A stretch of 47,069 nt of DNA from a virus (taxonomy: Duplodnaviria; Heunggongvirae; Uroviricota; Caudoviricetes): IMG/VR virus record IMGVR_UViG_2778261418_000014, positions 1-47,069 of that record; one strand, given 5' to 3'. Made by a program: the position numbers and the translations under genes. Shown in pieces: positions 1-18,664 of the stretch. The notes under the pieces are model-generated. The model had not been told where the DNA came from. It was given only the letters and a program-made list of their open reading frames with translations, and did not search any database. How positions within the stretch are numbered: the first letter of the stretch is position 1; every line of letters begins with the position of its first letter.

Positions 1-162
1 ATATTCATGATATTTGATTTTTTTAGAGTTAAAGAACGTGTAATTATTTGTTTTCAGATTAAAAAACCTCTATTACTATCACGCACCGGAAAGGCTATGT
101 TTTCGGCGAATGCTTATTACTTAAGATATTTATTTAAATGCAACTGCGACGGGAGTAATCTG

Positions 163-510
163 ATGCAGCAAAGAGATACTTACCTTCATGGGGAACAAAG
201 GCAGTTATTTCTTAGCAAGAAGAATCAGTATCTAGCGATAGGAAAGGTTCCTGAAGATATATTCTGGTTGCTAGTGGAGATGTCAGCCATACGCAGTCAA
301 AGCATCATAAAGGCATTGTATGACTATCTTGTTCTTGGTGATTCGAGAAAAGTTATCTGCGAGCGATACAATGTAAATAATGGATATATAAGTACCAGTT
401 TATCTCGTCTGGAACGTATGAATGAAATGATAAAAGAAATTATACCCCACCATGTAAAATGGTATTTGGGCACCAATAATTACTGTGAATGCTGTGCGCG
501 TGCTATATGA
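163..510 (+). CDS. PapB/FaeB-family adhesin-operon transcriptional regulator
   Basis: Track ORF 7..510. ATG at 163 is preceded by GGGAG (151-155) at 7-nt spacing. The segment SIIKALYDYLVLGDSRKVICERYNVNNGYISTSLSRLERM matches the conserved PapB-family core as I recall it (DYLV.G.SRKEVCEKY.MNNGYFSTTL.RL). Start is uncertain (7 and 97 are alternatives). Confidence 0.6.
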   Translation: MQQRDTYLHGEQRQLFLSKKNQYLAIGKVPEDIFWLLVEMSAIRSQSIIKALYDYLVLGDSRKVICERYNVNNGYISTSLSRLERMNEMIKEIIPHHVKWYLGTNNYCECCARAI

Positions 511-815
511 ATCAGAGAAGGACTGTCTATTCATAGATAAAATAATATCTATATAGGCATTTCTGCATGTTATAAAAATTGCACCTATAGCAATTGTGTT
601 GGTAAACTATCTTTTTCGTTTATAAGGAGGCGTTAATAAAAAAGTCGCAACTAGGTGTTAATTTTTTTCACTATGTATCGGTTATGTGGTCTTGATGATA
701 GTGAAAAGTTATGGATAAAGCTGCCATTAAATAATTATACAGATAACAAATTCTCAAAATATTATCTCATTGAGGCTTCAACTGTAGCTGGTGCAGTAAT
801 TTACTGAAGGTATTT

Positions 816-3800
816 ATGAATAAAATATATAAAGTGATATGGAACCACAGTACTCAGCAGTGGGATGTGGTTTCAGAATTGACAAGTTGTAGAAAAAAAT
901 GTAAATCAACTCGCTTAGGAATTGCTTTATCAGCAATGGTTCTGGGGGGCGCTATTGCAATTAATTGCAATAACGCAATGGCAGATGTCATATTGTCACC
1001 AGACTGGCGTCCGGGTACGAATAACTCGGGTGTTGGGGCTGCAACAGTAAGTGGTAAAACCGAATACATCACTGGTCCAAATGTCGTCCAGTCTGGTGGG
1101 TCAGGTCTTATCTGGATGACTGTAGAACAGGCAATTTTAAATGGCTACACCACTGGAGATAATTTATCCGGATTGATTTACGTCAATACCGGAGAAAAAA
1201 CAAAAACCATTACAGTGAAGGATGAGGTTACTGGCGCTTCTCAAACACTTCAAGTGTTTGATACTGACTCTTTCTCACAACGCGATGCGGGGACTGGGGG
1301 AAATGAAAATATTCCTGGTTTTAGTGGGACTGCGGATTTTTTTAATGCGACACGTTTTGTAACAGCAGAAAATGGCGGTACAGCTATTTTAAATGTGGGT
1401 TCGCCTGCAATCGGTAATTTTTTTAAAAATACACAGCTTGCTGTAGCTGATGGAGACGGTTCCTCTGTTGTATGGAACTCGGTCAATGATTTTTATTTTC
1501 AGCCTGCAGCAACCATGCAGGGGGGCGGCGTTACTCAAAAGATCATTGACTCAATGAAATACGCTGGAACAATTACTGATTGGACGGGTAAAGTACACCA
1601 TATTAACTCTCTTGATGATTTAAAGCAATATAATCAATATTTGATAAAGTCACTAGAGGACAAAACGCTTTCTTATAAGCAGTATGATGCTGAATTTAAT
1701 AAGGCCCTTATTGTCACCAAGCATAATTACAATGTGGATATGACCGCTGGGGGACGTATAGACTCAACTCCTTACAAAGAAAATGTAGGGCTGCTTGCTG
1801 TTCTCCATGCAACCAATAAAGCACGAGCAATATTAGGTAAAACGGGTAAATTAACTGGAGTTCTTCCTGCCTATGGGAATGGAGGAGGGATCGTTGCAAC
1901 TAATGGTGGGACCGGTGTTAATGAAGGGATCATTGATGCCATTGGTACTGAAATGATTGCCTATCAAGACAGTACCATTGTTAACGATGGTACACTTTAT
2001 GTTTGGGATAATAATGATAAATATGCTCTCCAGGCGGAGGGGATGGTTGCTGGGAGTAATAACTCATCAGCCATTAATAATAGTGTCATTAATATTCGCC
2101 CATTTAAAAATGCTTTCGCACCAGAGGGGATTAACACCGCAATTGTTGTTAGCAATGGAGGCATGGCAACAAATAATGGCACGATAAATATTACTGCTGA
2201 TGCATCAACTAATGATAATAATGGAAAAACACGAGGTGTAAATGTTGGAGCAGGAGGCTCTTTTATTAACTCGGCCTTAGGGAACATCAATATAGGTATT
2301 GCGGAGGATAAAACTGCGACTCATTCGGCTGTGGGTTCTGTTGCGATTGAAGTACAAAATGGTGCAAACAAAGTCGTTAATGAAGGTACTATTCTTTTGG
2401 GCACGGGGGCTCAGGGGAACTACGGAATCCTGGCAAAGGATGCCGGGACTGTTGATGTGGTAAATACAGGGACTATCACTATTGACGGTCATGACAGTGA
2501 TGCACCTGCACTGAATATCGGTATGTTTGCAAATAACAGCACCGGGCTGAAAAACACCGGGGTTATTAATGTGAATGGCCTGAACAGTGCCGGATTACAG
2601 GTCATAAACGGAGGCCAGATAGCGTCTGACGGTACTGTAAATGTTGGCGGCAAGGGTATCAGTAGTGGTTTCCGTAACTATGGCGCATGGGTGGAAGGCA
2701 CCGGAAGTCGTGTTGATATATCCGGCGAAATTAGCCTTACCGGTGACGGCGCAGTGGGGGTTTTTGCCAAAGATGGCGGAAACCTGACCCTGTCAGGGAA
2801 TGGTGCGGTGGTATTCGGTGGCAGTGACCAGGTGGGGTTTTATGTCTATGGTGATGGTTCCGCCATTCATAATACCGGGAACAGTGTTATGGATGTTTCC
2901 ACCGAAAATTCAACGTTATTCCGTATTGCCAGCGGGGCGGTATACCGGGGGGGCACAGGGGCATCCTCTGATCTGACGGCATCCGGTAAGAACTCGTATG
3001 CGCTTGTTGCCACTGGCAGGTCTGACACAGGGACTGCCTCAACCGTCACATCCGGAGGGATGACCATCAACCTGACGGGAGAGGGGGCGACAGCTGTCCT
3101 GGTAGAGGGCGGGGCACAGGGCTCAATTGACAGTAGTACCACTATCAATATGGATAATGCCAGCGCGATTGCCGGTATTGCGGATGGCAACGGGTATGAT
3201 ATTTCCGGCAATCTTATTAATCCAAATGACAAGACCACATTATTAACAGCAGGTGCTCAGCTGAGCTCTTCTCAGGATAAAGTAACCGGGTATATCGCCC
3301 GCAATGGGGCAACCCTGGAGAACACCGGTAATATCACCTTTACCGGAAAGAACACGACCGGTATCCGGGTTGAGGAAGGCGCTACTGGCACCAACAGTGG
3401 AAATATCATCGTTCAGGATGGCGGTGTGGGATTACTTGCCCGCGGCTCACAGGACTCCACGACCATTAATAACAGCGGCAATCTGGTCCTCAGTGGGGGG
3501 GATAATGCCAATCGTACCACTGGGGTTAAAGCTTCCGGTGCAGCAACAACGGTTAATATGATCGCCGGCACACTCGAACTGCAGGGGCAGGGGGCGATTG
3601 GCGTTGAGGTCAGTGAACAGGGAACGGTGAATCTTGAGGGGACTGCCATTCCTAAGTTTGCTGCTGACGGTTCCGGTATTACCGATCAGATTGCTTTCCG
3701 TATTATCGGAGATGGTGCAACCATCAATACGAAGGTTGCACAGGGAACGCTGCTGGAAGCCAGTGGGCAGCGGTCAGTGCTCTTCCGCATTGAAGACGGG

Positions 3801-6800
3801 GCAAAACAGACAGGCTCTCTGCTGATGCAAACCTCCGGGACAGGCAGCCGGGGGATCTGGGCCGCAGGGAAAGGGAGCAATGTCCTGGCTGAGGCTGGCA
3901 GTGATTTCCAGATCCTGGGGGCTCAGGCTCAGGGATTATATGTAACTGGTGGTGCGACAGCGACGCTGAAACAGGGGGCATCAGTTAACCTTGTAGGGGA
4001 TGGCGCTGTTGTCGCGGAAGTTGACGGAAATGAATACGCTCTGGATGGCAGTATTACACAAACGAATACTGGCTCGGTTATTACCAATGAGGCAGATATC
4101 TCTTCGCCGCTGAATAATGCCAAGGGCTTTATTACGCGTAATCAGGGACTGTTGATTAACAGCGGCAACATTGATTTCACTGCCGGTACCGATAATATCG
4201 GCGTCTGGGTTGATAACGGCCGCTTTGAAAATACAGGAAGCCGTATTGCGGTCAATGGCGTTGCATTATTTGTTGAAGGCGCACAGTCTCAGATTACCAG
4301 CACAGGAGGGAATATCGTCGCTGTGGATGGTGAGGCTGCCATTAAGCTGGGGGCGGGCGCGTCACTGAACCTGGCAGGGAGTGGCCTGGGTACGATCGAA
4401 GGTCAGAAAAATGCGCATGGCATCCTGCTGGATACAGGGGCTGTGGGGCTGGTTATTGATGGTGCGAAAATCAATGTTAATGCTGCAGGTGCGGTCGGTC
4501 ACGGGATTGAGAACCGCGCAGAAATTGAAGGCATTCAGTTAACCAATACGACTGAAATTAATGTGGCTGATGGCATTGGTGTGCGAACTTCTGCTTCTCT
4601 GGCGAAGACCAACAGCGGCACTATTAATGTAGACGGCAGTGGAATTGCACTGGCGTTCCAGAAAGCTGACGGAAGTGAAACCGATAATAACCTGGATATG
4701 TCTGACTCCGGCGGATTAGTCATTAATCTGAAAGGCACGGGCGGCACGGGTATTTTCGCCAACACTAAAGATGGTGCTGTCGTGAAGAGTGGTGCAAGTG
4801 TCAATGTTACACAGGCCGATGGCGGTTCCGCTCTGGTGGTTAACAATGCGGCCAGTGAAGTGGTTCAGAGCGGTAATCTCATTTCTGCTTCTCTGAATCA
4901 TGCCGTGGTGGATGCATCAAAAGCACTGTCCTTTACCAATAAAGGTCAGATTAAAGCTGCGTCCGCCACCGGGACTGCAATGGCGTTTGATGACGCAGTG
5001 AATACCACCGTACTGAATGACAGCGGTGCTGAAATTCAGGGGGTTGTGGCTCTGAACGGCGGTGATAACACATTCACCAATAAAGGCAGTATTACCGGAA
5101 CCGTCAGTGCAAAAGATGGCAACAACACATTGTTATTTGATGACGGCAGCATACTGACAGGAGAAGTGACTGCAGGAAATGGCAATAACAATGTAACGCT
5201 CAATGGTAAGGCTCATGTTGATAAGATTACTGCCGGTACCGGGAAGAACACCTTCACCATTAAAGGCGAAGGGGCAACCTGGAACCAGCTGGATGGCGGG
5301 CAGGGAGATTCTGATTCCCTGATTTTTGATAACGCCATTCATACGCTGGATTCTGTTGTAAAACTACGGAATTTTGAACATGTCGGGCTGAAGAACAGTT
5401 CGCTTGTCACTCTGAAGGAAGCTCTTGTGCTGACCGATGGGGGGACCGGCCCGGGTTCCGTCGATATTGAATCGGGCAGCGAACTGGCCATTATTCCCGC
5501 AGTTGCAGGCAACTTTACCTTTGATCCATTGTTAACGGGCAAAGGAACGCTGTCTGCTCAGCTTGATGCCGAGACCTCTGCTTTTGAATTCAGCCATAAC
5601 GTCGGGGATCAATTTGCCGGAACTCTGAAGCTGGGTACCAGTAGCTTTGCTCTGGAAGGGCTGAATACGAGCGGGTTAACCCATGCAATGCTGATGTCTG
5701 AAACCGGGAATATCACAACGGTTGGCTCCGGTGTTCAGCAGATTGGCGGTCTTGGGTTCAATGGCGGAACGCTGATTTTTGGTTCCGTTATGCCGGGCGA
5801 TACCATTGCCAGCAACAGTATTGAAACCTCTGCTGCAGGTACGCTGGATATCCGGGGGAAAGGCACAATTCAGGTCACCATGCCAGATGAAGTGATTAAT
5901 GATATTCCGGCTGTTGATACCCGTAAGAATTTGCTGGAGCAGGATGATGCGCAGACCCTGGTCACGCTGGTGAATGCAGCGGGTACCGTCACCGGTACTG
6001 GCGGGCAACTGCAACTGGTGGATGAAAACGGGCAGGCTATTTCTCACAGTCAGACGTTTGATGTCACTCAGGGCGGTGAAGTTGTAGCTCAGGGAAATTA
6101 TGACTATAAGCTGCTGGGAAGCTCCGACGGTATTAAAGGTGACGGACTGTACATAGGCTATGGGCTGAAGTCGCTGGATTTACAGGGAACCGGTGATAAA
6201 GCGCTGGTGCTGACACCGAGAGCGAATGCCCAGGGACTGCAGACAGATCTTGGCGCACAGTTAACGGGGGCAGGGGATCTGGCCATCGAAGCTGCGGGGC
6301 AGGTTGTCACACTGTCTAACGGCGGTAATAACTACACCGGGGATACGCTGGTGCGCAGCGGCACATTACAGATGGCAAATGATAATGTACTTGGCGCAAC
6401 AGGTAATCTGAACGTCGCCAGCAATGCCGTCTTCAGAACAAACGGATACAGCCAGACTGTCGGTGCACTGCAGACAGAAACGGGAGCGCACATTCAGCTT
6501 GATAGCGGTAGTGTACTAACGGTCAGCGGCACGCAGCGTCAGCCGGGGGATGATAATGGTGGCATCATTGAAAACAACGTGCTGTCCGGTGAGGGAACGC
6601 TGGCTGTCACGGGCAGCAATCTGACGGTACATGGCACCAATATCGGGTTTACCGGTAATGCCAGCCTTACCCAGGGGGCGCTGGTTGAAATGAACGGCGC
6701 ACAGGGGCTGGGAAGCCAGGGCTCCATCAGCTTTGAAAGCCTTAATGATCGCCTGGCGATTGATATCGCCGACGGTAGCGGAGTCAGCAGTAACCTGAGT

Positions 6801-8723
6801 AAATCGCTTTCCGGAGAAGGTTCAGTGGGTATACTGAACACCACTGATCTGACGCTTTCCGGGGATAACAGTAATTTCAGCGGTGAATTCCGTGTGCAGA
6901 AAGATGCTGCTCTGCGGGCTTCAGATGAAAAACACCTGGGCACCGGGCTGATTGACAGTGATGGTGTCACCTGGCTTACCGCCAGTGGAAACTGGTTACT
7001 GAAGAATGATATTACTGGCTCCGGCGCTCTGGTGAAACAGGGGGCGGGTAATCTGATCATTAATCATGAGCTGACTTATACCGGTGATACCACGGTTGAA
7101 AATGGCGTTCTGATTGTCGGTGATGATTCAGTCACCCGCGCCGCTGATGCGACGCTATCAGGCTCCGGAAATATTCATGTTCTCAATGGCGGCACACTCA
7201 GTGGGCAGGGTACCGTTGCAGGTCATGTTAATAACCAGGGAACGCTGGCATCACTGAATGCACTTTCAGGCTATGAGAACGCAGAAGTAAGCAATTTTAC
7301 GGTTGGCTCACTGACCAATACCGGCGTCATTCGTCTGGCCGGTGGTAAGACAGGAAATACCCTGACCGTAAATGGCGATTACACCGGTGGCGGTACGTTA
7401 ATTATCAATACCGTGCTGGGGGATGATACCTCTGCCACTGACAAACTGATTGTCACGGGTAACACTTCCGGCGATACCGGCGTGGTGGTGAATAACGTCC
7501 GGGGCCAGGGGGCTCAGACCGCTGACGGCATTGAGATTGTGCATGTCGGTGGTCAGTCTAACGGTAACTTCAGACTGGAGAATCGTGCTGTGGCCGGGGC
7601 ATGGGAATATTTCCTGCATAAAGGTAATGCGGGTGGTACCGACGGTAACTGGTATCTGCGCTCTGAATTGCCGCCGGAGCCGGGGACAAAACCGGAGACA
7701 AAACCGGAGACAAAACCAACACCGGATAAACCTGTGCAGACGGTCTATCGCCCGGAGGCTGGCTCATATATTTCGAACATTGCGGCGGCTAACACGCTGT
7801 TCAACACCAGAATGCACGATCGTGAGGGGGAAACTTACTATACCGACGTGTTTACTGGTGAGAAAAAAGCAACCAGTATGTGGATGCGTCATGTTGGCGG
7901 TCATAATCGCTGGAAGGACAGTAGTTCACAACTGAATACGCAAAGCAACCGCTATGTTGTGCAACTGGGTGGCAGCATTGCACAGTGGACTGACGGTCAG
8001 GAGCGTCTGCAGCTGGGTATTATGGCCGGTTACGGGAATGAGAAGAGCTCCACGACATCCTCGGTTTCGGGATATAAATCTAAAGGCTCGATCAGCGGTT
8101 ACAGTACCGGTTTATACGGAACGTGGCAGCAGAATGACGGCAATGACACCGGGGCTTATGTTGACACCTGGATCCAGTACGGCTGGTTTAATAATACCGT
8201 TAATGGTGAAAAACTGGCGGCGGAGTCCTGGAAATCCCGTGGATTTACCGGTTCAGTGGAAGCAGGTTATACCTTCAAAGCCGGCGAATTTACCGGCAGC
8301 CAGGGAAGCCACTATGACTGGTATATTCAGCCACAGTCCCAGCTTACGTGGATGAATGTAAGAGCCGGCGAACATAAGGAGAAAAACGGCACGAAAGTTC
8401 AGCTTAACGGAGACGGCAATATCCAGAGTCGTCTGGGCGTCAGAACTTACCTGAAAGGTAAGAGTGCGTCTGATGACAATAAGGCGCATCAGTTCGAGCC
8501 TTTTGTGGAGGTTAACTGGATCCATAATACACAGGACTGGAGTGTCAAAATGGATAATACGGTACTCAGTCAGGACGGAGCCACAAATATTGCTGAAGTC
8601 AAAACGGGTGTTCAGGGTAAATTGTCAGACAACCTGAATATCTGGGGCAATGTTGGCGTTCAGGTCGGCGATAAAGGGTACAGTGATGCCCAGGCAATGC
8701 TGGGTATTAAATATACATTTTAA
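816..8723 (+). CDS. Giant type Va autotransporter adhesin (2635 aa)
   Basis: N-terminus MNKIYKVIWNHSTQQWDVVSEL is the extended signal peptide motif typical of autotransporters. The passenger is a long Gly/Thr/Asn-rich beta-helix-like repeat region with PATR-like repeats (GAGDLAIEAAGQVVTLSNGGNNYTGDTLVRSGTLQ; GSGALVKQGAGNLIINHELTYTGDTTVENGVLIV). A pertactin-like autochaperone region and a Pro-rich linker PEPGTKPETKPETKPTPDKP precede a C-terminal beta-barrel-like domain ending KYTF. Confidence 0.85.
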   Translation: MNKIYKVIWNHSTQQWDVVSELTSCRKKCKSTRLGIALSAMVLGGAIAINCNNAMADVILSPDWRPGTNNSGVGAATVSGKTEYITGPNVVQSGGSGLIWMTVEQAILNGYTTGDNLSGLIYVNTGEKTKTITVKDEVTGASQTLQVFDTDSFSQRDAGTGGNENIPGFSGTADFFNATRFVTAENGGTAILNVGSPAIGNFFKNTQLAVADGDGSSVVWNSVNDFYFQPAATMQGGGVTQKIIDSMKYAGTITDWTGKVHHINSLDDLKQYNQYLIKSLEDKTLSYKQYDAEFNKALIVTKHNYNVDMTAGGRIDSTPYKENVGLLAVLHATNKARAILGKTGKLTGVLPAYGNGGGIVATNGGTGVNEGIIDAIGTEMIAYQDSTIVNDGTLYVWDNNDKYALQAEGMVAGSNNSSAINNSVINIRPFKNAFAPEGINTAIVVSNGGMATNNGTINITADASTNDNNGKTRGVNVGAGGSFINSALGNINIGIAEDKTATHSAVGSVAIEVQNGANKVVNEGTILLGTGAQGNYGILAKDAGTVDVVNTGTITIDGHDSDAPALNIGMFANNSTGLKNTGVINVNGLNSAGLQVINGGQIASDGTVNVGGKGISSGFRNYGAWVEGTGSRVDISGEISLTGDGAVGVFAKDGGNLTLSGNGAVVFGGSDQVGFYVYGDGSAIHNTGNSVMDVSTENSTLFRIASGAVYRGGTGASSDLTASGKNSYALVATGRSDTGTASTVTSGGMTINLTGEGATAVLVEGGAQGSIDSSTTINMDNASAIAGIADGNGYDISGNLINPNDKTTLLTAGAQLSSSQDKVTGYIARNGATLENTGNITFTGKNTTGIRVEEGATGTNSGNIIVQDGGVGLLARGSQDSTTINNSGNLVLSGGDNANRTTGVKASGAATTVNMIAGTLELQGQGAIGVEVSEQGTVNLEGTAIPKFAADGSGITDQIAFRIIGDGATINTKVAQGTLLEASGQRSVLFRIEDGAKQTGSLLMQTSGTGSRGIWAAGKGSNVLAEAGSDFQILGAQAQGLYVTGGATATLKQGASVNLVGDGAVVAEVDGNEYALDGSITQTNTGSVITNEADISSPLNNAKGFITRNQGLLINSGNIDFTAGTDNIGVWVDNGRFENTGSRIAVNGVALFVEGAQSQITSTGGNIVAVDGEAAIKLGAGASLNLAGSGLGTIEGQKNAHGILLDTGAVGLVIDGAKINVNAAGAVGHGIENRAEIEGIQLTNTTEINVADGIGVRTSASLAKTNSGTINVDGSGIALAFQKADGSETDNNLDMSDSGGLVINLKGTGGTGIFANTKDGAVVKSGASVNVTQADGGSALVVNNAASEVVQSGNLISASLNHAVVDASKALSFTNKGQIKAASATGTAMAFDDAVNTTVLNDSGAEIQGVVALNGGDNTFTNKGSITGTVSAKDGNNTLLFDDGSILTGEVTAGNGNNNVTLNGKAHVDKITAGTGKNTFTIKGEGATWNQLDGGQGDSDSLIFDNAIHTLDSVVKLRNFEHVGLKNSSLVTLKEALVLTDGGTGPGSVDIESGSELAIIPAVAGNFTFDPLLTGKGTLSAQLDAETSAFEFSHNVGDQFAGTLKLGTSSFALEGLNTSGLTHAMLMSETGNITTVGSGVQQIGGLGFNGGTLIFGSVMPGDTIASNSIETSAAGTLDIRGKGTIQVTMPDEVINDIPAVDTRKNLLEQDDAQTLVTLVNAAGTVTGTGGQLQLVDENGQAISHSQTFDVTQGGEVVAQGNYDYKLLGSSDGIKGDGLYIGYGLKSLDLQGTGDKALVLTPRANAQGLQTDLGAQLTGAGDLAIEAAGQVVTLSNGGNNYTGDTLVRSGTLQMANDNVLGATGNLNVASNAVFRTNGYSQTVGALQTETGAHIQLDSGSVLTVSGTQRQPGDDNGGIIENNVLSGEGTLAVTGSNLTVHGTNIGFTGNASLTQGALVEMNGAQGLGSQGSISFESLNDRLAIDIADGSGVSSNLSKSLSGEGSVGILNTTDLTLSGDNSNFSGEFRVQKDAALRASDEKHLGTGLIDSDGVTWLTASGNWLLKNDITGSGALVKQGAGNLIINHELTYTGDTTVENGVLIVGDDSVTRAADATLSGSGNIHVLNGGTLSGQGTVAGHVNNQGTLASLNALSGYENAEVSNFTVGSLTNTGVIRLAGGKTGNTLTVNGDYTGGGTLIINTVLGDDTSATDKLIVTGNTSGDTGVVVNNVRGQGAQTADGIEIVHVGGQSNGNFRLENRAVAGAWEYFLHKGNAGGTDGNWYLRSELPPEPGTKPETKPETKPTPDKPVQTVYRPEAGSYISNIAAANTLFNTRMHDREGETYYTDVFTGEKKATSMWMRHVGGHNRWKDSSSQLNTQSNRYVVQLGGSIAQWTDGQERLQLGIMAGYGNEKSSTTSSVSGYKSKGSISGYSTGLYGTWQQNDGNDTGAYVDTWIQYGWFNNTVNGEKLAAESWKSRGFTGSVEAGYTFKAGEFTGSQGSHYDWYIQPQSQLTWMNVRAGEHKEKNGTKVQLNGDGNIQSRLGVRTYLKGKSASDDNKAHQFEPFVEVNWIHNTQDWSVKMDNTVLSQDGATNIAEVKTGVQGKLSDNLNIWGNVGVQVGDKGYSDAQAMLGIKYTF
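7685..7718 (+). repeat. Tandem 12-bp repeat (gacaaaaccgga, about 2.8 copies) encoding the PETKPETKP linker of the autotransporter
   Basis: Direct reading: gacaaaaccgga gacaaaaccgga gacaaaacca. Confidence 0.6.
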
Positions 8724-8730
8724 TCACATA

Positions 8731-8755
8731 GTGGCAGGAGGATCCCTCCTGCCAC
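8731..8755 (+). other. Perfect 11-bp stem hairpin between the autotransporter and Skp-like genes
   Basis: gtggcaggagg-atc-cctcctgccac. No U-tract follows, so it is more likely a stabiliser or attenuator than an efficient intrinsic terminator. Confidence 0.4.
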
Positions 8756-8770
8756 ATCCGGGTAGTCATA

Positions 8771-9313
8771 ATGAGTTCTGTAATGAAATTTTCTGTTGCT
8801 AATGCAGTATTGTTGCTGTTGCTGATTGGATTTACTGGTGTTATTTATATGAATAAATCAAAAGAAATTGCAGTTGTTAATATTGATGCTGTTTATAATC
8901 AGTCTTCTGCCGGAGAACTGGCCAGAACGCATCTGAGTGAAGTTAAGATTATTCTTGAAAAGGGATACAAGGATGCGCTAAAAGCATTCGCAGATAACGA
9001 AAATAAAGATGCACTGCTTCTTGATGCCAGACAAAAACTGGAGAGGCAATATGTTATCGAGGAGCACAATGCAAAAATGGTGTTATCCCGTGTAATAGAT
9101 AATGCCATAAATAACTGGAGAAAAGATAACACAGGAAATATTGCTGTGTTGTCTTCAGGTGTTGTGCTTGCACATAACGATTCAGCTGATATCACAAAAG
9201 AAATTATGGCTCTGGTTGAAAAAGAACATCTGGTTTTTAATCAGTTACCTAAAGTGGAAGTGAAAGTTCAGGAGGAGGTGACAAGTAAAGAGGGAACAGA
9301 AGAAGATAAATAA
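8771..9313 (+). CDS. Skp/OmpH-like periplasmic chaperone
   Basis: 180-aa ORF with a hydrophobic N-terminus. KEIAVVNIDAVYNQSSAG and VLAHNDSADITKEIMALV resemble the Skp motifs (KIAIVN...; VAYNSSDVKDITADVLKQV). It lies immediately downstream of the autotransporter. Confidence 0.55.
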   Translation: MSSVMKFSVANAVLLLLLIGFTGVIYMNKSKEIAVVNIDAVYNQSSAGELARTHLSEVKIILEKGYKDALKAFADNENKDALLLDARQKLERQYVIEEHNAKMVLSRVIDNAINNWRKDNTGNIAVLSSGVVLAHNDSADITKEIMALVEKEHLVFNQLPKVEVKVQEEVTSKEGTEEDK

Positions 9314-9351
9314 CCATTAGTTCCCGATAACGTTTGTTGAGGCGATTCACA

Positions 9352-9390
9352 AGCCGGTATCTGTTATCACTCAGATACCGGCTTATTGTT
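9352..9390 (+). terminator. Rho-independent terminator-like hairpin after the Skp-like gene
   Basis: Inverted repeat agccggtatctg / cagataccggct with an 8-nt loop, followed by tattgtt. Confidence 0.45.
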
Positions 9391-9547
9391 GGGGCCGGGT
9401 ATAATCCGGCAACAGCGTCAAATATCAGGAGGAGGAATGCTGGTTAGGTAACTTTATCATCTTCAGTCTCAAATTCTGATAAATGACAGGAATGTGCGGC
9501 ATGCATTACTTAACGTATACCATCTATAGCTAGATGAAAATTTATTT

Positions 9548-9952
9548 TTGATGTGGGGATTGATATATGGAAATGAAAAAAACATTTGCTATATAAAGAG
9601 TGAAATAAAAGAACATGATATTACTGTTCACTTATGGGTATTTGCATCGCTGACAAAAACTGAGTGTGATGTTCTTGAGTTAATAATGAAAGGGTATAGT
9701 TCTACAAAAATATCACACCTCCGGTCTCGTAGTAATAAAACTGTATCGTTACAAAAGAGACATATATACAAAAAACTTGGTGTCCGAAATGATGTTACAT
9801 TCTGGATTGATATTTTTTTGTCACCAGCGATAAGAACAGTTTTTTACCGAAAAGGCGAGGTTATTAACATAGAAAATGAAATTTTCGAAATGTCCGGTGA
9901 TTCATTTAAGCTTTTGAATAAGTCACTGAACACATTACTGGACAAAAAGTGA
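9548..9952 (+). CDS. LuxR-family HTH protein, possibly a truncated regulator
   Basis: LTKTECDVLELIMKGYSSTKISHLRSRSNKTVSLQKRHIYKKLGV is a typical LuxR-type HTH. It sits N-terminally rather than C-terminally, in very AT-rich DNA, so it may be a remnant. Confidence 0.4.
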   Translation: MMWGLIYGNEKNICYIKSEIKEHDITVHLWVFASLTKTECDVLELIMKGYSSTKISHLRSRSNKTVSLQKRHIYKKLGVRNDVTFWIDIFLSPAIRTVFYRKGEVINIENEIFEMSGDSFKLLNKSLNTLLDKK

Positions 9953-10017
9953 GTATTAATAATTACTGCGGTATCAGTTTAAAGACGGGGTAATTAATCT
10001 ACTGGTTATTATATACA

Positions 10018-10048
10018 CGCCGGGTCAGGCCGGCGCGTTCCTTTTTTG
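10018..10048 (+). terminator. Rho-independent terminator
   Basis: acgccgggtcaggccggcg hairpin followed by ttccttttttg. Confidence 0.55.
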
Positions 10049-10271
10049 TATATGGATTTTCTATTTGTGTATAAGACCCATACTTATCACGTGTTTGTGG
10101 ATTAAACCTCTAAAGAGGTTAAGCACTAGCAAGAAGGGCGATGGTGGGCAGCAATGCTGTTTTTGGTGTGATCACTCATGTCATCAATGATGCCCGAAGT
10201 GGGGAATTTGATGATTGTCCGGTTATTTAAGCTGCAAAGGGCTGGTGCTTTATGCCTGTGAGGTTTATAAT

Positions 10272-10298
10272 TGTGTACACATAACGAGTACACGAGGT
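10272..10298. promoter_or_regulatory. phd-doc promoter/operator palindromes
   Basis: TGTGTACACA palindrome plus the neighbouring GAGTACACGAG half-site repeat lie immediately upstream of phd. The phd/doc operon is autoregulated through palindromic operators. Confidence 0.5.
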
Positions 10299-10302
10299 GT
10301 TT

Positions 10303-10524
10303 ATGCAATCCATTAACTTCCGTACCGCGCGCGGCAACCTTTCTGAAGTGCTCAACAATGTTGAAGCCGGGGAAGAGGTTGAAATCACCCGCAGAGGCCG
10401 TGAGCCAGCAGTAATTGTCAGCAAGGCTACTTTCGAAGCCTACAAAAAAGCGGCGCTGGATGCTGAATTTGCATCCCTGTTTGACACCCTGGACTCCACC
10501 AACAAGGAACTGGTTAACCGATAA
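10303..10524 (+). CDS. phd: Phd antitoxin (prevent host death)
   Basis: [73 protein letters not shown] matches P1 Phd as I recall it. GAGGTG SD; TAATG overlap with doc. Confidence 0.93.
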
Positions 10525-10904
10525 TGAGGCATATATCACCGGAAGAACTTATTGCGCTTCATGATGCGAATATAAGCCGCTACGGCGGCCTGCCTGGCAT
10601 GTCAGATCCGGGCAGGGCAGAGGCCATTATCGGGAGAGTTCAGGCCAGAGTTGCCTACGAAGAGATCACCGACCTTTTCGAAGTCTCCGCCACCTACCTG
10701 GTGGCTACAGCGAGAGGGCATATATTCAATGATGCCAATAAGCGTACCGCGCTAAACAGCGCGCTGCTATTTCTACGCCGTAACGGGGTGCAGGTATTTG
10801 ATTCACCTGAACTGGCAGACCTTACTGTAGGCGCTGCGACTGGCGAGATATCTGTATCTTCTGTCGCCGACACGTTACGTAGATTGTATGGTTCTGCGGA
10901 GTAG
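10524..10904 (+). CDS. doc: Doc toxin (Fic-fold kinase)
   Basis: 126 aa with the Fic motif [11 protein letters not shown]; translationally coupled to phd. Confidence 0.93.
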
Positions 10905-10908
10905 ATTA

Positions 10909-11088
10909 ATGGCACGCAAATACAACAAATTGTCCCGTGAAGCGTTAAAGATGCTTCTTGATGGCGTGAGTCGCCGCGAGGTAAAGCAATACCTGGTTGG
11001 TAAGCAAATTGGAGCCAGGGCTGCTATTGCTGTGTTATGCCGTCAGGAAATGGTTGTGCTTAAACAGAGAATGCCGGGCAGCAGATAA
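10909..11088 (+). CDS. Small hypothetical protein at the P1 pdcB position
   Basis: ATG at 10909 with GGAG upstream. Positional equivalence only. Confidence 0.4.
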   Translation: MARKYNKLSREALKMLLDGVSRREVKQYLVGKQIGARAAIAVLCRQEMVVLKQRMPGSR

Positions 11089-11115
11089 AGCCCAATCAGT
11101 GATGAAAGGTGTGAT

Positions 11116-12159
11116 GTGAAAGCCGTAATTACTCCCTTTGTACAAAAAGAGCTTGGCGTCGCCACATTCAAAGTGGATCAGGAAGTCAGAAAGCTGGTGG
11201 AGGCTGGCCGTAAATTTATTATGGAGCCGGTGCCGCGTGAGTTAATCGAGCACATGGAAGACGGCCTCGTTGTTACCGAGCAAACCATGGCAACAAATGA
11301 GGCGTTGCAGCCGTTTTTTAACAGCGATGAACTGTTTCGCCGTATTGGTGGAATTGACTCGCTGGTGGCGTGGTTGCGCAGGAAAGAGGGGCAATGCCAG
11401 GCCGCAGATCGTAGCTGGTGTGACAACCATATTGTCCACGCAGAACGAGACAATAGCGCGGTGTTGTTGTGCTGGCATCACGATAACCATTACCGGATGC
11501 GTGGTTTTAATGAGCTGAAAGAAACGCTGCACAATAATCGCGTTAACTGGATACTGGATGTCGCCCGTCAGGAAATGGGCCTTTCAAATAGCCATGATTT
11601 AAGTATTCAGGAGCTGTGCTGGTGGGCTTTCATGCGCAACATGATGCACCTGATGCCGGAAGAAGTCTGCCGCATATCAATAAATAAGATGAAGGCTACT
11701 CCGCAGGATAGCGGACCTCTGAAAGAGGCGGATATTCGCCCGTATGACGATCGCGCTACAGCATATGTTCAGATGATGGAAGAACGCGCCGCGCCGATGC
11801 GTGCAAAAGTATGCCCTGTGGATGTTGACTCCGACCCAGGTATGGCGCATTTCAAAATACCAAAACTTCAATCGCTAAAATTGCCCGAGTACATGGACTT
11901 TGTGGCTTCCCGTCCATGCTGTGGCTGTGGAGCTGCGGGAGCTGGCGCTCACATTACGCCTTATATCGTTCGTCATAGTCGATTATGCGCGCATGACATT
12001 TATGCTATTCCTCTGTGCCAGTCATGCCAGCGTGATATTGAGCGTGACCGCGATAATTGGGAGAAGACGCACGGTAGGCTGGCGATGCATCAACGATTGT
12101 TCTTTGATTACGCGCTTGGAGTCGGCGCTATCACAAGTCACTCGTCGAGCGTTAGATAA
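11116..12159 (+). CDS. Cys-rich hypothetical protein (347 aa) at the P1 pdcA position
   Basis: GTG start with AAAGG SD. Cys/His clusters ([13 protein letters not shown]; [40 protein letters not shown]) suggest a metal-binding, possibly HNH-like fold. Confidence 0.55.
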
Positions 12160-12160
12160 A

Positions 12161-12177
12161 ATTGCTCTAATGTATTG
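12161..12177 (+). promoter_or_regulatory. C1 repressor operator upstream of lpa
   Basis: ATTGCTCTAATGTATTG versus the 17-bp consensus ATTGCTCTAATAAATTT. Confidence 0.65.
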
Positions 12178-12247
12178 CTATTTCTTTAATCGAGGGTATT
12201 ATATTCGACGTTGATTAGTTGACATGGGCTAATCAGTAGGTGACAGG

Positions 12248-12700
12248 ATGTTACTTAACTGGCAGGGACGCCACTTCATGGAAATAAATCACTCACGAAT
12301 AACATCGTACGAGATTGCGGATTACATGATCCGCACTAAATCTCTTCTATCAGCGAAAGAACTCGCAGCAATTCTTGAAAAGGAATACCCGCATCTGGAT
12401 GTCGATAAGCGCGATGTTTATCTGCGCTTAAAGGCTATCGCTGTGTCTAAGTATTCGTCTGTTTTGATTGATGACAGTACACGCCCACGTAGATTTCAGA
12501 TCCACTCTCTGAATCCTGAATTCTTTCGCCGCAGCCGCGCTCCGCGCCGGTTTGATGAAAAACTCCAGAACGAACTCTATATGACGCAGGACGAAAAGGA
12601 ACGCCGGGAGCACCAGCCTTGGGTGATGGCGCGTCAACTTTTCAATAAGGTGGTCCGTCAGCACCGTCATTACGGTAATGCCACATCCGCACGTATCTGA
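12248..12700 (+). CDS. lpa: Late promoter activator Lpa
   Basis: 150-aa ORF directly upstream of pacA and downstream of a C1 operator, as in P1. Alternative start at 12278. Confidence 0.65.
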   Translation: MLLNWQGRHFMEINHSRITSYEIADYMIRTKSLLSAKELAAILEKEYPHLDVDKRDVYLRLKAIAVSKYSSVLIDDSTRPRRFQIHSLNPEFFRRSRAPRRFDEKLQNELYMTQDEKERREHQPWVMARQLFNKVVRQHRHYGNATSARI

Positions 12701-12786
12701 TTGATTGCTTGCCCGTTCCGGGCCTTTTGACATGTGACTTTCGTTACCCTCGCGTCAAAAAGAGTTTTATACGAAAGGAAGCATAA

Positions 12787-13980
12787 GTGACCTGGGACGA
12801 TCACAAGAAGAATTTTGCTCGCCTGGCGCGAGATGGTGGTTACACCATCGCACAATATGCCGCCGAGTTTAATCTCAACCCAAACACCGCACGTCGTTAT
12901 CTCCGTGCATTCAAAGAAGACACCGGAACAGCGGACAGCCGTAAGCCAAATAAGCCTGTCAGAAAACCACTAAAAAGCATGATCATTGATCACGCTAATG
13001 ATCAACGTGCAGGTGATCACATTGTGGCTGAAATGGCTGAAAAACAAAGAGTTAATGCTGTTGTCAGTGCCGCAGTCGAGAACGCGAAGCGCCAGAATAA
13101 GCGCATAAATGATCGTTCTGATGATCATGACGTGATCACCCGCGCCCACCGGACCTTACGTGATCGCCTGGAACGCGACACCCTGGATGATGATGGTGAA
13201 CGCTTTGAATTCGAAGCTGGCGATTACCTGATAGATAACGTTGAAGCGCGGAAGGCCGCGCGCGCTATGTTGCGTCGGTCCGGGGCCGATGTTCTGGAAA
13301 CCACTCTTCTGGAAAAGTCTCTTTCTCATCTCCTTATGCTGGAGAACGCCAGGGATACGTGTATTCGTCTGGTGCAGGAAATGCGCGATCAGCAAAAAGA
13401 CGATGATGAAGGGACTCCGCCTGAATATCGTATCGCGAGCATGCTAAACAGCTGTTCCGCGCAGATAAGCAGCCTGATCAACACCATTTACAGCATCCGG
13501 AATAACTATCGAAAAGAAAGCCGGGAGGCGGAAAAGCACGCTTTATCTATGGGGCAAGCTGGCATTGTTAAGCTGGCATACGAACGAAAGCGTGAAAATA
13601 ACTGGTCAGTGCTGGAAGCAGCTGAATTCATCGAGGCGCATGGCGGAAAAGTGCCGCCCCTGATGCTGGAGCAAATCAAAGCCGATCTGCGTGCTCCTAA
13701 GACCAATACCGATGATGAGGAAAGGCAAACAGCCGTCGGTGGCCCTTCTCTTGAAGATCTGGACAAAGTTGCGCGAGAACGGGCCGCCAACCGCCGCGCC
13801 GATGCCGCATTGTGGATTGAGCAGCGTAGGGAAGAAATCGCCGATATCGTTGATACAGGCGGTTATGGAGATGTTGATACTGAAGGTGTATCAAACGACC
13901 CATGGCTGGAACAAGACCTGGACGAAGACGAGGAGGAAGATGAAGAAGTTACCCGCAAGCTATACGGGGATGATGATTAA
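12787..13980 (+). CDS. pacA: Terminase small/pac-recognition subunit PacA
   Basis: 397 aa, GTG start with GAAAGGAAG SD, contains the pac site, acidic C-terminus, overlaps pacB at TAATG. Confidence 0.85.
12980..13138. other. pac packaging site
   Basis: Four TGATCA hexamers (12980, 12987, 12999, 13014) and three TGATCG/A hexamers (13110, 13122, 13133) flank a roughly 90-bp core. This is the P1 pac architecture with Dam GATC sites. Confidence 0.85.
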
Positions 13981-15464
13981 TGGCCAGAAGTTGCGTAACG
14001 GATCCACGTTGGCGCGAGCTGGTGGCGCTATATCGTTATGACTGGATTGCTGCCGCTGATGTTTTGTTCGGCAAAACACCTACCTGGCAGCAGGATCTGA
14101 TTATTGAGTCTGTGCAGGAACAGGGTAGCAAGACATCTGTTTCGTCTGGTCACGGTACCGGGAAATCAGACATGACTTCTATCATGATCATGTTGTTCAT
14201 AATCATGTATCCCGGTGCCCGCGCCATTATCGTTGCGAACAAAATTCAGCAGGTAATGACCGGTATATTCAAGTACATCAAGATAAACTGGGCTACTGCC
14301 ACCAGCCGTTTTCCATGGCTTGCTGATTATTTTGTTCTGACAGAAACCGCTTTCTATGAGGTTACTGGTAAAGGTGTATGGACTGTAGTACCGAAGGGCT
14401 TTCGTCTGGGAAGTGAAGAAGCTCTCGCCGGTGAACACGCAGATCATCTTCTGTATATTATCGATGAAGCCTCCGGTGTCAGTGATAGAGCTTTCGGTAT
14501 CATCACCGGTGCTCTTACCGGACAGGATAACCGCATCTTATTACTGTCACAGCCTACACGCCCAAGCGGCTATTTCTACGATACTCACCATAAACTGGCC
14601 AAGCGTCCTGGTAACCCTGATGGCGTTTATACGGCGATCACGCTTAACAGTGAGGAATCACCGCTGGTAACTCCAGCATTTATCAAAATGAAGCTGGCGG
14701 AGTACGGCGGGCGTGATAACCCTATGTACATGATTAAGGTACGCGGACTATTCCCTAAATCACAGGATGGCTTCCTTCTTGGACGTGATGAGGTTGAACG
14801 TGCGACGCGGCGGAAAGTCAAGATTGCCAAAGGATGGGGCTGGCTTGCATGTGTGGACGTTGCTGGTGGTACAGGACGGGATAAGTCCGTTATCAATATC
14901 ATGATGGTGTCCGGCCAGCGAAATAAACGCCGTGTAATCAACTATCGAATGCTGGAATACACAGACGTTACAGAAACGCAGCTTGCCGCCAAAATTTTCG
15001 CAGAATGTAATCCTGAGCGATTCCCCAATATCACCATAGCGATAGACGGCGATGGCCTGGGTAAAGCAACGGCGGATCTGATGTACGAGTATTATGGTAT
15101 TACCGTACAGCGTATACGCTGGGGTAAAAAGATGCATAGCCGTGAAGATAAGAGCCTGTACTTTGATAAACGTGCTTATGCCAATGTTCAAGCCGCAGAG
15201 GCCGTAAAATCTGGTCGTATGAGACTGGATAAGGGTAATGAAACTATTGAGGAAGCGTCGAAAATCCCTGTAGGGATTAACTCCGCAGGTCAATGGAAGG
15301 TGATGAGTAAGGAGGATATGAAGAAAAAACTCAACCTGCACTCACCAGACCATTGGGATACATATTGTTTCGCTATGCTGGCGGATTATGTTCCCCAGGA
15401 TGAAGTGCTTAGCGTCGAAGACGAAGCGCAGGTTGATGAAGCTCTGGCATGGCTTAATGAATGA
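13980..15464 (+). CDS. pacB: Terminase large subunit PacB
   Basis: 494 aa; Walker A-like GHGTGKSD and a nuclease-like acidic region; follows pacA. Confidence 0.85.
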
Positions 15465-15467
15465 ACA

Positions 15468-15484
15468 TTTGCTCTAATGAATTG
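15468..15484 (+). promoter_or_regulatory. C1 operator-like site at the head of the icd/ant module
   Basis: TTTGCTCTAATGAATTG matches the consensus ATTGCTCTAATAAATTT at 14 of 17 positions. It overlaps the pacB stop. Confidence 0.5.
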
Positions 15485-15649
15485 TGTTTTTTAACTACCG
15501 ATGTTACATTGAACCTGACCTCTTGCGCCTTGAGGCATTTTCGGTTTATGCTTATCAGGCACCTCATTAAAACGGGTGCCGGGATTGGCCTCCCGCTTAA
15601 GTCTAAGGCGATACAGACGCCGCTCGCGTCTTTTTTTGTATCGGCGTAC

Positions 15650-15730
15650 ACGCACACCTCTACAATGGTGGGCTGTATGGGGCTACCTTCGGGTAGGCTG
15701 GTTACCTTGGACGCCAGTAAGGCCAACTCC
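15650..15730 (+). ncRNA. Candidate c4-like antisense RNA (boundaries approximate)
   Basis: A stable UUCG-loop hairpin (15681-15698) is followed by CCTTGGACG (15705-15713). That segment is complementary, with one G-U wobble, to GTCTAAGG at 15601-15608 and to CGTCTAAGG at 15783-15791, which overlaps the SD of the icd-like gene. This mirrors the P1 c4 b'/b1/b2 arrangement. Confidence 0.35.
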
Positions 15731-15802
15731 GTACAGTCCACCGCCAGCAAGATTGGTCTCTTCTGCGGTGGTTACATACCAACGTCTAAGGAGGCTGCCA
15801 AT

Positions 15803-17139: not shown

Positions 17140-17146
17140 TGGAAGA

Positions 17147-17168
17147 ATGCCCGGTTGATGCCGGGCAT
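17147..17168. terminator. Bidirectional terminator hairpin between convergent ant and c1
   Basis: atgcccgg-ttgatg-ccgggcat followed by aatttatt. Confidence 0.5.
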
Positions 17169-17171
17169 AAT

Positions 17172-18023: not shown

Positions 18024-18133
18024 TGATCCTCCTCCAGAATTGACATGGTCAATAACGCCCGGCTGAGAAAACCGGTCATTACTGACCTATATTATAGAGG
18101 GATCAAACAAAAATAATAGATTTATTAGTGCAT

Positions 18134-18598: not shown

Positions 18599-18664
18599 TG
18601 TCAAACAACTATGAAAAACAATCCAGTTTTTAGCTGGTGGAGTGGGATTTTTCTCTCTAAATTT

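Follow-up and report, generated by a model that had tools for sequence, protein, structure and literature searches.

What is a P1-like phage-plasmid doing with a 7.9-kb open reading frame at a place where P1 keeps its own genes? The question is raised by the left end of IMG/VR virus record IMGVR_UViG_2778261418_000014 (Caudoviricetes), whose 47,069 nucleotides, read on one strand, are the window analysed here. Positions 1-10097 are quite probably most of a cassette of ≈ 10.6 kb of chromosomal origin, which took the place of a P1 segment of ≈ 4 kb and encodes an adhesin of the UpaE type, a helper protein with the Skp fold, and regulators; its adhesin gene is a mosaic with chromosomal upaE, and the whole would constitute an adhesion module for lysogenic conversion. 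Loci used for comparison are cited by number (L001 and so forth).

The limits of the cassette were set by comparison with P1-like phages. P1 homology is absent from positions 1-10145, in keeping with the initial annotation, which had seen no P1 backbone gene in the first 10 kb, and starts at 10146, 80 bp before the end of humD:

10146..10226, plus strand: right junction with the 3′ remnant of humD, where the P1 backbone restarts (homology to P1, NC_005856, from P1 87893; humD = 87584-87973)
10297..10904, plus strand: phd/doc addiction module, P1 backbone context outside the cassette (PF02604, E 3e-13; PF02661, E 3e-9; P1 annotation)

The left boundary is provided by the sister plasmid pAPEC201602 (L001), in which position 1 of the window corresponds to L001 8001 and P1 homology runs to L001 7238-7327, inside pap. 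Homology to chromosomal copies of the cassette spans L001 7532 to window position 10097, ending among the individual copies at 10060-10097, and the composition profile shows a drop of the G+C content to 0.31 at 9501-10000. The cassette of ≈ 10.6 kb, with its short junctions, thus stands in place of the ≈ 4-kb P1 segment pap′-pmgTUV-upfMNO-hot-lxr-humD′, its left edge and a papI-like gene lying ≈ 0.5-0.8 kb outside the window. The junction DNA (≈ 200 bp at L001 7328-7531 and ≈ 50 bp at window 10098-10145) matches neither P1 nor the chromosomal cassettes; no transposase or att sites were found at the island ends, and no repeats or transposase that would account for capture were found at the junctions.

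The interval between pap and phd measures 4-8.8 kb among P1, P7, RCS47, SJ46, and other P1-like phages and, differing in length in this way, represents a variable cargo region. While the backbone to the right of the island (10146-35000; also queried as 10100-35000) matches at least 339 PLSDB plasmids at a coverage of at least 80%, the island itself matches one. The island is therefore, as judged from these matches, rare cargo of one P1-like sub-lineage, as had been proposed, and not a part conserved in all P1-like backbones; comparison with the related phage-plasmids has now given it boundaries in pap and humD. In the backbone the genes phd, doc, pdcA/B, lpa, and pacA/B follow in P1 order with 92-99% identity to P1, P7, SJ46, and RCS47, and DUF968 (PdcB) was found among the window proteins by Pfam. 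The remainder of the window is P1-like as well. At 15559-15748, Rfam models identified the P1/P7 immI C4 antisense RNA (15661-15748, 75.9 bits) and, next to it, an isrK-like RNA (60.8 bits), a pair that befits a P1-like immunity region. A search of phage records returned no genuine phage with the island. Phage GER2 (L002, MG710528.1), which did match, was considered as a second phage carrier and rejected, its upaE region preceding the prophage integrase and att features and thus representing chromosomal flank. The record of this Stx phage includes chromosomal upaE and the Skp-like gene at 4284-12775, with upaE split and mislabelled "long tail fiber proximal subunit"; as an artefact of the database, this can lead searches for phage cargo astray.

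The large open reading frame and its parts are as follows:

816..8723, plus strand: UpaE-family, AIDA-I-type (type Va) autotransporter adhesin, 2635 amino acids, 270 kDa, with ESPR, PATR, AC_1, and barrel
816-944, plus strand: ESPR of the adhesin, residues 1-43 (PF13018, E 3e-13)
≈ 7302-7616, plus strand: AC_1 autochaperone of the adhesin (PF18883, E 6e-26)
≈ 7878-8654, plus strand: beta-barrel of the adhesin (TIGR01414 / PF03797)

The passenger contains a PATR match (PF12951, 29.2 bits against a gathering score of 27), the C-terminus matches TIGR01414 of NCBIfam with E 2e-118, and the chain ends in ...KYTF. In a Pfam scan of the full-length protein the barrel was absent, a filter artefact settled by scanning the C-terminal 407 residues alone, which returned PF03797 with E 4e-41. 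With ESPR, autochaperone and PATR, and C-terminal barrel all present, the product is, by its domain order, a type Va autotransporter, and its display at the cell surface is predicted. The domain searches hence place the protein where the initial annotation had put it, as a giant autotransporter with an extended signal peptide, PATR repeats, and a barrel; what needs correction is its standing, as it belongs to the already characterised UpaE family.

In a megablast search of 5426 complete E. coli genomes, window positions 806/814-9262 were matched at 93% identity in 241 chromosomes, in which the matched genes are annotated "phase-variable autotransporter adhesin UpaE" and "OmpH family outer membrane protein". 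This chromosomal homology starts 2-10 nt before the adhesin ATG and stops within the last 50 nt of the Skp-like gene. At the protein level, the adhesin shares 94.0% of its residues with the UpaE named in RefSeq, which has the same length of 2635 amino acids, and 86.8% with the allele of the sister plasmid. UpaE from strain CFT073 is a 271-kDa surface protein, to be compared with the 270 kDa computed here, which promotes biofilm formation and binding to fibronectin, laminin, and collagens; its gene shares a transcript with ipuR that starts from ipuS, an invertible promoter flipped by IpuA, IpuB, FimE, and FimX (PMC6083910). Matching length, mass, and amino acid identity therefore make this an adhesin of known kind, and the adhesive and biofilm function of UpaE may reasonably be transferred to it by analogy.

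The complete cassette comprises, in this order, a papI-like gene (outside the window), a papB-like gene, the autotransporter gene, the Skp-like gene, and a gene for a LuxR-type protein of 128-133 residues. The island is present in six P1-like elements counting the window, the others being pAPEC201602, L004, L005, L006, and L032. A seventh element, pRHB14-C21_2 (L024, CP057803.1), keeps both junctions, with IS1 in place of the entire cassette, and is therefore taken, on this arrangement, as a derivative of an island-bearing plasmid produced by IS1-mediated deletion; it is a 48.9-kb IncY/IncFIA P1-like plasmid, whose 768-bp IS1 (InsA/InsB) lies at 3234-4001, next to DNA matching window 9943-10100. 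Outside the phage-plasmids, chromosome L008 carries the five genes in identical order, with 89.6% identity to the sister plasmid over 10.5 kb. In NZ_CM185151.1 (L023), the cassette occurs twice in tandem (8287-18774 and 22295-32791), with ISL3 and other transposase remnants between the copies; the pair is flanked by IS110 and IS66 remnants and lies beside a type VI secretion cluster (tssB), a position occupied by ipuR-upaE in other strains. The papB-linked upstream region was found in only 2, and the PapB-linked N-terminal passenger allele in only 4, of the 5426 complete genomes. Present in E. coli chromosomes independently of the phage-plasmid, the cassette is, to judge from these copies, of chromosomal origin. 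Several carriers derive from poultry or avian-pathogenic E. coli and from environmental strains.

The gene that follows the adhesin, and the two hairpins around it, are considered next:

8731..8755, plus strand: conserved intercistronic hairpin, 8 nt after the adhesin stop codon, with an 11-bp perfect stem (arms 8731-8741/8745-8755), a 3-nt loop, and no U-tract (inverted-repeat analysis)
8771..9313, plus strand: Skp/OmpH-fold protein of 180 (ATG 8771) or 176 (ATG 8783) amino acids (family profile and predicted fold)
9351..9384, plus strand: terminator-like hairpin with a 13-bp perfect stem followed by ATTGTT, closing the adhesin/Skp-like unit (inverted-repeat analysis; the chromosomal locus keeps the stem via changes on both arms)

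The Skp-like protein begins with a hydrophobic segment, either an export signal or an anchor, continues in an acidic body, and ends in an acidic, disordered tail. Searching 1.84 billion representative sequences with a profile yielded 214 relatives; 97 of 100 aligned relatives match PF03938 (OmpH) at E ≤ 0.01, and the family profile matches OmpH-like PDB chains at E 8e-5 to 3e-4 (4kqt, E 8e-5). The AlphaFold2 model computed on the family alignment (pLDDT 89.8) contains strand 28-32, helices 42-68 and 75-115, and strand 119-124, which is the Skp order of strand, helical hairpin, and strand, and the ten best Foldseek matches in the PDB are all Skp, OmpH, or SkpA of the type IX secretion system with probability 1.0, the next match having an E value of ≈ 2. 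The fold assignment, predicted from a monomer model, is therefore sound, and the OmpH membership claimed for the 180-residue protein holds at the level of family profile and predicted fold, the score of the lone sequence staying below the Pfam threshold. An F-x-x-L-P-x-V motif followed by the acidic disordered tail (window 9236-9313, residues ≈ 152-176) is a conserved feature of this OmpH subfamily that E. coli Skp lacks; P156 of the motif is nearly invariant among 100 relatives. A lipobox is present in ≈ 44% of the remote relatives.

Homologues of the Skp-like gene follow directly on an autotransporter barrel gene, with a gap of 25-123 bp, in seven of nine contexts and down to 28% identity: E. 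coli chromosomes L003 and L008, Salmonella diarizonae L013, and L015, L016, L018, and L021. Among these, the homologue in L016, on a relaxase-bearing contig, is 40% identical, that in L021 49%, and that in L018, a lipoprotein form, 28%. Of the remaining two contexts, one has an EamA gene upstream and the other is uninformative. No relative was found in species-representative genomes with one family alignment as the query, and the linkage rests on these nine contexts. The initial annotation had regarded a Skp paralogue next to an autotransporter as unusual, a view in need of correction: the pair sits in 241 of the 5426 complete E. coli chromosomes, and with the seven linked contexts the pairing is seen to be conserved and not peculiar to the phage-plasmid. 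Literature searches on an OmpH/Skp-like gene beside an autotransporter returned nothing relevant.

The adhesin and the Skp-like gene are separated by 47 bp, which contain the perfect 11-bp hairpin that the first reading of the sequence had already pointed out. The region folds better than its shuffles (z = -3.0), and the hairpin is kept in seven other loci, including all E. coli and Salmonella loci, with differing loops (ATC, GGA, TGT, ACA, AGC). In L021 three stem pairs are altered on both sides, that is, in a compensatory manner, and in the corresponding position L016 forms a stem of unrelated sequence, again perfect over 11 bp. In an alignment of six sequences, 98.5% of the cells pair, three pairs showing double changes; such covariation was reached in only 4 of 500 shuffles, and slid controls drop to 42-68%. 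A terminator-like hairpin was found only after the Skp-like gene and not between the two genes, which would accordingly form one transcription unit. The intercistronic hairpin could serve as a stabiliser of an mRNA 3′-end or as a partial attenuator, setting the ratio of adhesin to chaperone mRNA.

The adhesin gene itself is composed of two kinds of sequence. Sliding identity and a two-state segmentation over 1221 informative sites gave the following blocks:

up to 866, plus strand: cassette/plasmid-type block (9/9 informative sites)
879..2502, plus strand: chromosomal (ipuR-linked) UpaE-type block, N-terminal passenger, residues ≈ 22-562 (531/560 sites; 94-100% identity to L003/L002 versus 58-67% to the plasmid-type allele)
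2519..3854, plus strand: PapB-linked (cassette) type block (227/229 sites in two sub-blocks; 96-100% to L001 versus ≈ 80% to L003)
2648-2656, plus strand: 4-site chromosomal-type stretch splitting the two cassette sub-blocks (segmentation)
3864..7109, plus strand: mostly chromosomal-type region overall (bins 100% identical to L003/L002)
3864-4604, plus strand: chromosomal-type block (36/36 sites)
4916-5576, plus strand: mixed stretch, no allele assigned (segmentation)
5612-7109, plus strand: chromosomal-type block (119/119 sites)
7139..9296, plus strand: PapB-linked-type block with autochaperone, linker, barrel, hairpin, and Skp-like gene (200/202 sites; 99-100% to L001/L005 versus ≈ 92% to L003)

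Within the adhesin gene, ≈ 60% of the informative sites are of the UpaE type and ≈ 40% of the type of the PapB-linked paralogue; the other island plasmids examined have an unmixed allele of 2641 residues or its frameshifted form. On the simplest reading, the gene would have swapped at least four blocks with chromosomal upaE, the N-terminal passenger among them. If the plasmid prophage, kept in single copy, recombined repeatedly with a chromosomal upaE of its host, a UpaE-type N-terminal passenger could have come under PapB-linked control.

Several points weigh against the picture of a working adhesion module with a helper of its own. Expression and function of the element are predictions from its sequence, and the promoter and terminator consensus scan showed no enrichment of matches relative to shuffles, for which reason no promoter is put forward. 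The adhesin gene, intact in the window, L005, and L032, is annotated as frameshifted in pAPEC201602, and L004 has A11 instead of A9 in a poly-A tract of the gene. For the Skp-like protein, the single-sequence Pfam score for PF03938 is 21.4 bits, below the gathering score of 32.4. The protein is acidic, with a computed isoelectric point (pI) of 5.3-5.8, E. coli Skp being basic and computing to 9.5. Its N-terminus, a hydrophobic helix (Kyte-Doolittle maximum 2.3) without a lipobox and without a clear A-x-A cleavage site, is compatible with a cleaved signal or a membrane anchor, so that periplasmic export is a prediction; and the sample of gene contexts is small, nine loci with one negative and one uninformative. 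UpaE was displayed in K-12 without the Skp-like gene, which makes this protein non-essential (PMC6083910). Finally, in a host that has a chromosomal upaE as well, the assembly could have joined the two copies, and the mosaic would then be a chimera.

The alternative that survives best concerns the Skp-fold protein, which might not be a chaperone for the adjacent adhesin at all and might act instead as a membrane-tethered periplasmic factor, an envelope-stress helper, or a regulator of display. In the study of CFT073, upaE was cloned alone, with a reverse primer ending at the stop codon, and its product was surface-displayed and functional in K-12 (PMC6083910); the Skp-like gene is therefore at most accessory. 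The acidic pI, the possible uncleaved N-terminal anchor, the extra conserved F-x-x-L-P-x-V motif that Skp lacks, and the homologue in L019/L020 that is not beside an autotransporter point in the same direction. Against this stand the position of the gene, 25-123 bp behind a barrel gene in seven of nine contexts even where identity has fallen to 28%, the Skp fold predicted at high confidence, and the conserved hairpin between the two genes with a shared terminator after them. Taken together, a role other than that of a chaperone for the adhesin appears unlikely, although it is the most serious of the competing explanations. From the dedicated chaperone of the initial annotation, the fold and the linkage to the autotransporter remain, while the need for it is weakened by the K-12 result; the protein may be an accessory chaperone that improves efficiency.

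Somewhat less probable is that the mosaic is an artefact, the contig having been threaded through stretches common to chromosomal upaE and the plasmid paralogue, so that the real copy would be the PapB-linked allele of L005 and L032. It can be said for this explanation that the other island plasmids examined carry a non-mosaic 2641-residue allele or a frameshifted form of it, that the switch points sit in stretches conserved between both alleles, and that some blocks are 100% identical to chromosomal alleles. On the other hand, the open reading frame runs uninterrupted through at least six switches, its product has exactly the UpaE length of 2635 residues, and over 879-2502 the alleles are only 58-67% identical, which would make an assembler likelier to break than to cross; moreover, a single-copy plasmid is expected to recombine with homologous stretches of the chromosome. 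Genuine block exchange with chromosomal upaE is hence the preferred account.

A further explanation would see in the cassette decaying, hitch-hiking DNA with no role for phage-plasmid or host. The frameshifted adhesin genes of pAPEC201602 and L004, the loss of the whole cassette to IS1 in pRHB14-C21_2, and the shifted start of the LuxR-type gene in the window are what decay would produce. An intact 7.9-kb reading frame in the window, L005, and L032, five genes kept in order across several plasmids and chromosomes, and a hairpin and terminator conserved via compensatory changes are not easily reconciled with it, and we regard this explanation as improbable and retain that of an adhesion module.

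How the module would be controlled is a question for the regions on either side of the adhesin and Skp-like genes, together with a repeat in the adhesin linker:

1..162, no strand assigned: right part of the AT-rich papI-papB intergenic regulatory region (FaeA/PapI gene at L001 7570-7782, minus strand)
163..510, plus strand: papB-like transcriptional regulator, 115 amino acids (PF03333, 95.4 bits against a gathering score of 29.4, E 2e-27)
511..815, plus strand: AT-rich (30% G+C) leader, putative adhesin promoter region, unrelated to the ipuR-upaE junction of the chromosomal locus
7680..7717, plus strand: in-frame 12-bp tandem repeat (PETK units) in the proline-rich linker between autochaperone and barrel (TRF: period 12, 3.2 copies, 96% matches)
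9551..9952, plus strand: stand-alone LuxR/GerE-type helix-turn-helix regulator, 133 amino acids here (open reading frame 9548/9551-9952; 134 amino acids from 9548; PF00196, E 2e-12)
10018..10035, plus strand: terminator-like GC hairpin with a T-run after the LuxR-type gene, near the right end of the cassette (consensus scan)

The LuxR-type protein scores 47 bits with PF00196 (gathering score 23.5) over residues 34-83; only 33 residues precede the helix-turn-helix, leaving no N-terminal receiver or autoinducer-binding domain, and a C-terminal extension of ≈ 50 residues follows. The initial annotation had recognised a LuxR-type helix-turn-helix in AT-rich DNA (31% G+C), which is borne out, and had called it a fragment, which is not: members of the family are uniformly 126-133 residues long, and the gene is therefore that of a full-length short regulator and not a truncated one. 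It is remotely related to IpuR, through the helix-turn-helix alone. In chromosome L003 (1-3925), a second AIDA-type autotransporter gene without a Skp-like gene is followed by a 126-residue GerE protein of 60% identity and then by an EAL pseudogene; short LuxR-type proteins of this kind seem, from their gene contexts, to be linked to autotransporter loci in general.

The usual start of the LuxR-type protein (MEMKK) is out of frame in the window, because a poly-A tract at 9576-9582 has seven residues (A7) instead of eight; the upstream ATG 9551 gives 133 amino acids. The tract is A8 in eight loci and A9 in L004 (10814-). Another tract lies in the part of the adhesin gene encoding the signal peptide (893-899); it is A7 in the window and in the chromosomes (interrupted, AGA7), A9 in L001, L005, and L008, and A11, frameshifted, in L004 (2025+). 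L004 is thus aberrant at both tracts and may contain sequencing errors. These variations are the ground for supposing that expression is phase-variable by slipped-strand mispairing, the adhesin tract ranging from A7 to A11, with A9 in frame and A11 out of frame, and that of the LuxR-type gene from A7 to A9, whose A7 form of 133 residues recurs in 21 database sequences. However, the adhesin tract of the window is just an interrupted A7, as in the chromosomal alleles, tracts of A7-A9 are short for efficient slippage in E. coli, both L004 tracts may be homopolymer errors, and the sample is tiny; slippage control must be rated as doubtful, on a par with decay. The linker repeat is a different matter. 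As anticipated, its copy number varies, with three PETK units in the window and pAPEC201602 and four in L004 and L005, while the chromosomal alleles have a different, PQ-type linker repeat, also variable in length. Being in frame, it changes linker length only and therefore cannot switch expression on or off.

Upstream, the PapB-family regulator of the initial annotation is confirmed by PF03333. Its start at 163 is the most likely one, given a GGAG Shine-Dalgarno sequence upstream, the length of 115 residues in nearly all PapB relatives of 82-97% identity, and the equivalent start used by RefSeq in pAPEC201602, an alternative being a 167-residue open reading frame from base 7 (7-510). A divergent papI/FaeA-like gene lies ≈ 220-430 bp left of the window start and is also present in L005, L032, L008, and L023. 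In IncFII plasmids (L025-L028, ≈ 8500-18800), an orphan papB, 82% identical, is located between EAL fragments and a second papB with a K88-like chaperone-usher operon; such relatives beside fimbrial operons suggest that the regulators of the cassette were recruited from a fimbrial pool and shuffled among adhesin loci. The gene upstream of the adhesin is papB-like and not that of the 214-residue LuxR-type IpuR found in L003, and neither this papB-like gene nor the LuxR-like gene of the cassette belongs to the ipuR-upaE locus. A promoter-like site occurs in the adhesin leader at 736-765, sites of this kind being no more frequent than in shuffles.

Two switches known from other adhesins were considered and rejected. 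For an invertible promoter like ipuS or fimS, the cassette offers neither a recombinase nor a candidate element; such inverted repeats as lie upstream of the adhesin are short and imperfect, of the kind common in AT-rich DNA. Epigenetic phase variation of the pap type, with Dam methylation set against Lrp/PapI at two GATC sites, is suggested by the divergent papI-like and papB-like genes and an intergenic region of ≈ 370 bp as in pap operons, but is hardly credible, since the defining pair of GATC sites ≈ 100 bp apart is absent from three loci (no site in L001 (7783-8162), L008, or window 1-162, one in L005) and no GATC occurs between papB and the adhesin gene at 511-815. The PapB-type, possibly phase-variable control that had been proposed thus loses its phase-variable part; autoregulation of the PapB type and cross-talk with the fim/ipu recombinases of the host are a matter of speculation, and literature searches on PapB control of an autotransporter returned nothing relevant.

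From the features described above, a course of events can be outlined. The extended signal peptide would direct the adhesin through Sec, and in the periplasm the co-transcribed Skp-like protein would help to keep the chain unfolded; BAM would insert the C-terminal barrel, and the passenger would fold on the surface from the autochaperone domain. The displayed protein could mediate biofilm formation and binding to the extracellular matrix, as shown for CFT073 UpaE, under the control of the PapI/PapB-like and LuxR-like regulators instead of the ipuS invertase switch. Carried on a phage-plasmid, the system would amount to an adhesion module for lysogenic conversion.

The core of this is not new, as the adhesin belongs to the known UpaE family. 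New or previously undescribed are its carriage by a P1-like lineage, the PapI/PapB-linked paralogous cassette, the block exchange with chromosomal upaE, and the conserved pairing of autotransporter, hairpin, and Skp-fold gene. In the UpaE literature found, the downstream Skp-fold gene with its hairpin, the second, PapI/PapB-linked cassette, and the exchange of allele blocks are not mentioned. With a complete adhesin module on a P1-like phage-plasmid, lysogeny could alter adhesion and biofilm behaviour, and E. coli strains newly entered by the phage-plasmid may acquire an adhesion system in its entirety. A more general proposition is offered as tentative. Giant autotransporters of the UpaE/BigA type may have a private, co-transcribed, acidic chaperone of the Skp fold, from a distinct OmpH subfamily marked by F-x-x-L-P-x-V and often lipidated or anchored, with the hairpin setting the expression ratio, and the P1-like phage-plasmid would mobilise a self-sufficient cassette that swaps passenger blocks with the host copy. 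If the Skp-like protein is indeed a client-specific chaperone, it would be a tractable model for the periplasmic survival of 270-kDa passengers; private chaperone and block swapping together would amount to phage-driven diversification of adhesins.

Among the systems with which the locus can be compared, the closest is that of CFT073 (ipuA/ipuB-ipuS-ipuR-upaE; Battaglioli et al. 2018, PMC6083910), with which the adhesin agrees in family, length (2635 residues), mass (270 kDa), and architecture. In that work ipuR-upaE is treated as a two-gene operon and the downstream OmpH-like gene goes unmentioned (PMC6083910), although the Skp-like gene and the hairpin are common to the window and the chromosomal upaE locus. 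In contrast to CFT073, the window has no ipuA/ipuB recombinase genes, no ipuS invertible promoter, and no 214-residue IpuR, the upstream region being replaced up to the start codon by papI/papB-like genes; moreover, its adhesin gene resides on a P1-like phage-plasmid and is ≈ 40% of the PapB-linked paralogue type. The chromosomal PapB-linked cassette (NZ_CM185151.1, GCA_045573185.1) shows the identical order of papI, papB, autotransporter, OmpH-like, and 128-residue helix-turn-helix genes, with 85-90% nucleotide identity over ≈ 10.5 kb. It is annotated in databases, no description of it having been found in the literature, and differs from the window in being chromosomal, flanked by insertion sequences, sometimes duplicated, and located beside a type VI secretion cluster; the copy in the window, on a phage-plasmid, has acquired ipuR-type upaE blocks.

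The Skp-like protein shares with Skp (HlpA/OmpH) the beta-strand body and the long helical hairpin, with 1sg2, 1u2m, and 4kqt as top PDB entries and profile matches to PF03938. Unlike Skp, with which it has ≈ 15% identity, it is acidic and not basic, has an extra C-terminal motif, an acidic tail, and possibly an anchor, and is encoded next to its presumed client and not in a bamA-skp-lpxD cluster. A Skp fold dedicated to one system has a precedent in SkpA of the Bacteroidota type IX secretion translocon (PDB 8gl8), which is also the best structural match, at 10% identity; secretion system and phylum are different there, and the protein of the window is known from sequence and model. The divergent papI-like and papB-like genes, with a PapB domain well above threshold, resemble the regulation of the Pap, Sfa, and Fae systems; here, the presumed target is an autotransporter and not a fimbrial operon, and the GATC pair is absent. 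Literature searches on autotransporters in P1-like phage-plasmids returned nothing relevant. With the P1-like phage-plasmids RCS47 and SJ46, finally, the window shares the backbone (phd/doc, pdcB, lpa, pacAB, C4 RNA) and the placement of cargo in the variable segment between pmgS/pap and phd. The cargo described for RCS47, SJ46, and similar elements is mostly antibiotic resistance, brought in by insertion sequences or transposons; that of the window is, by contrast, a 10.6-kb adhesin and secretion cassette without a transposase at its ends.

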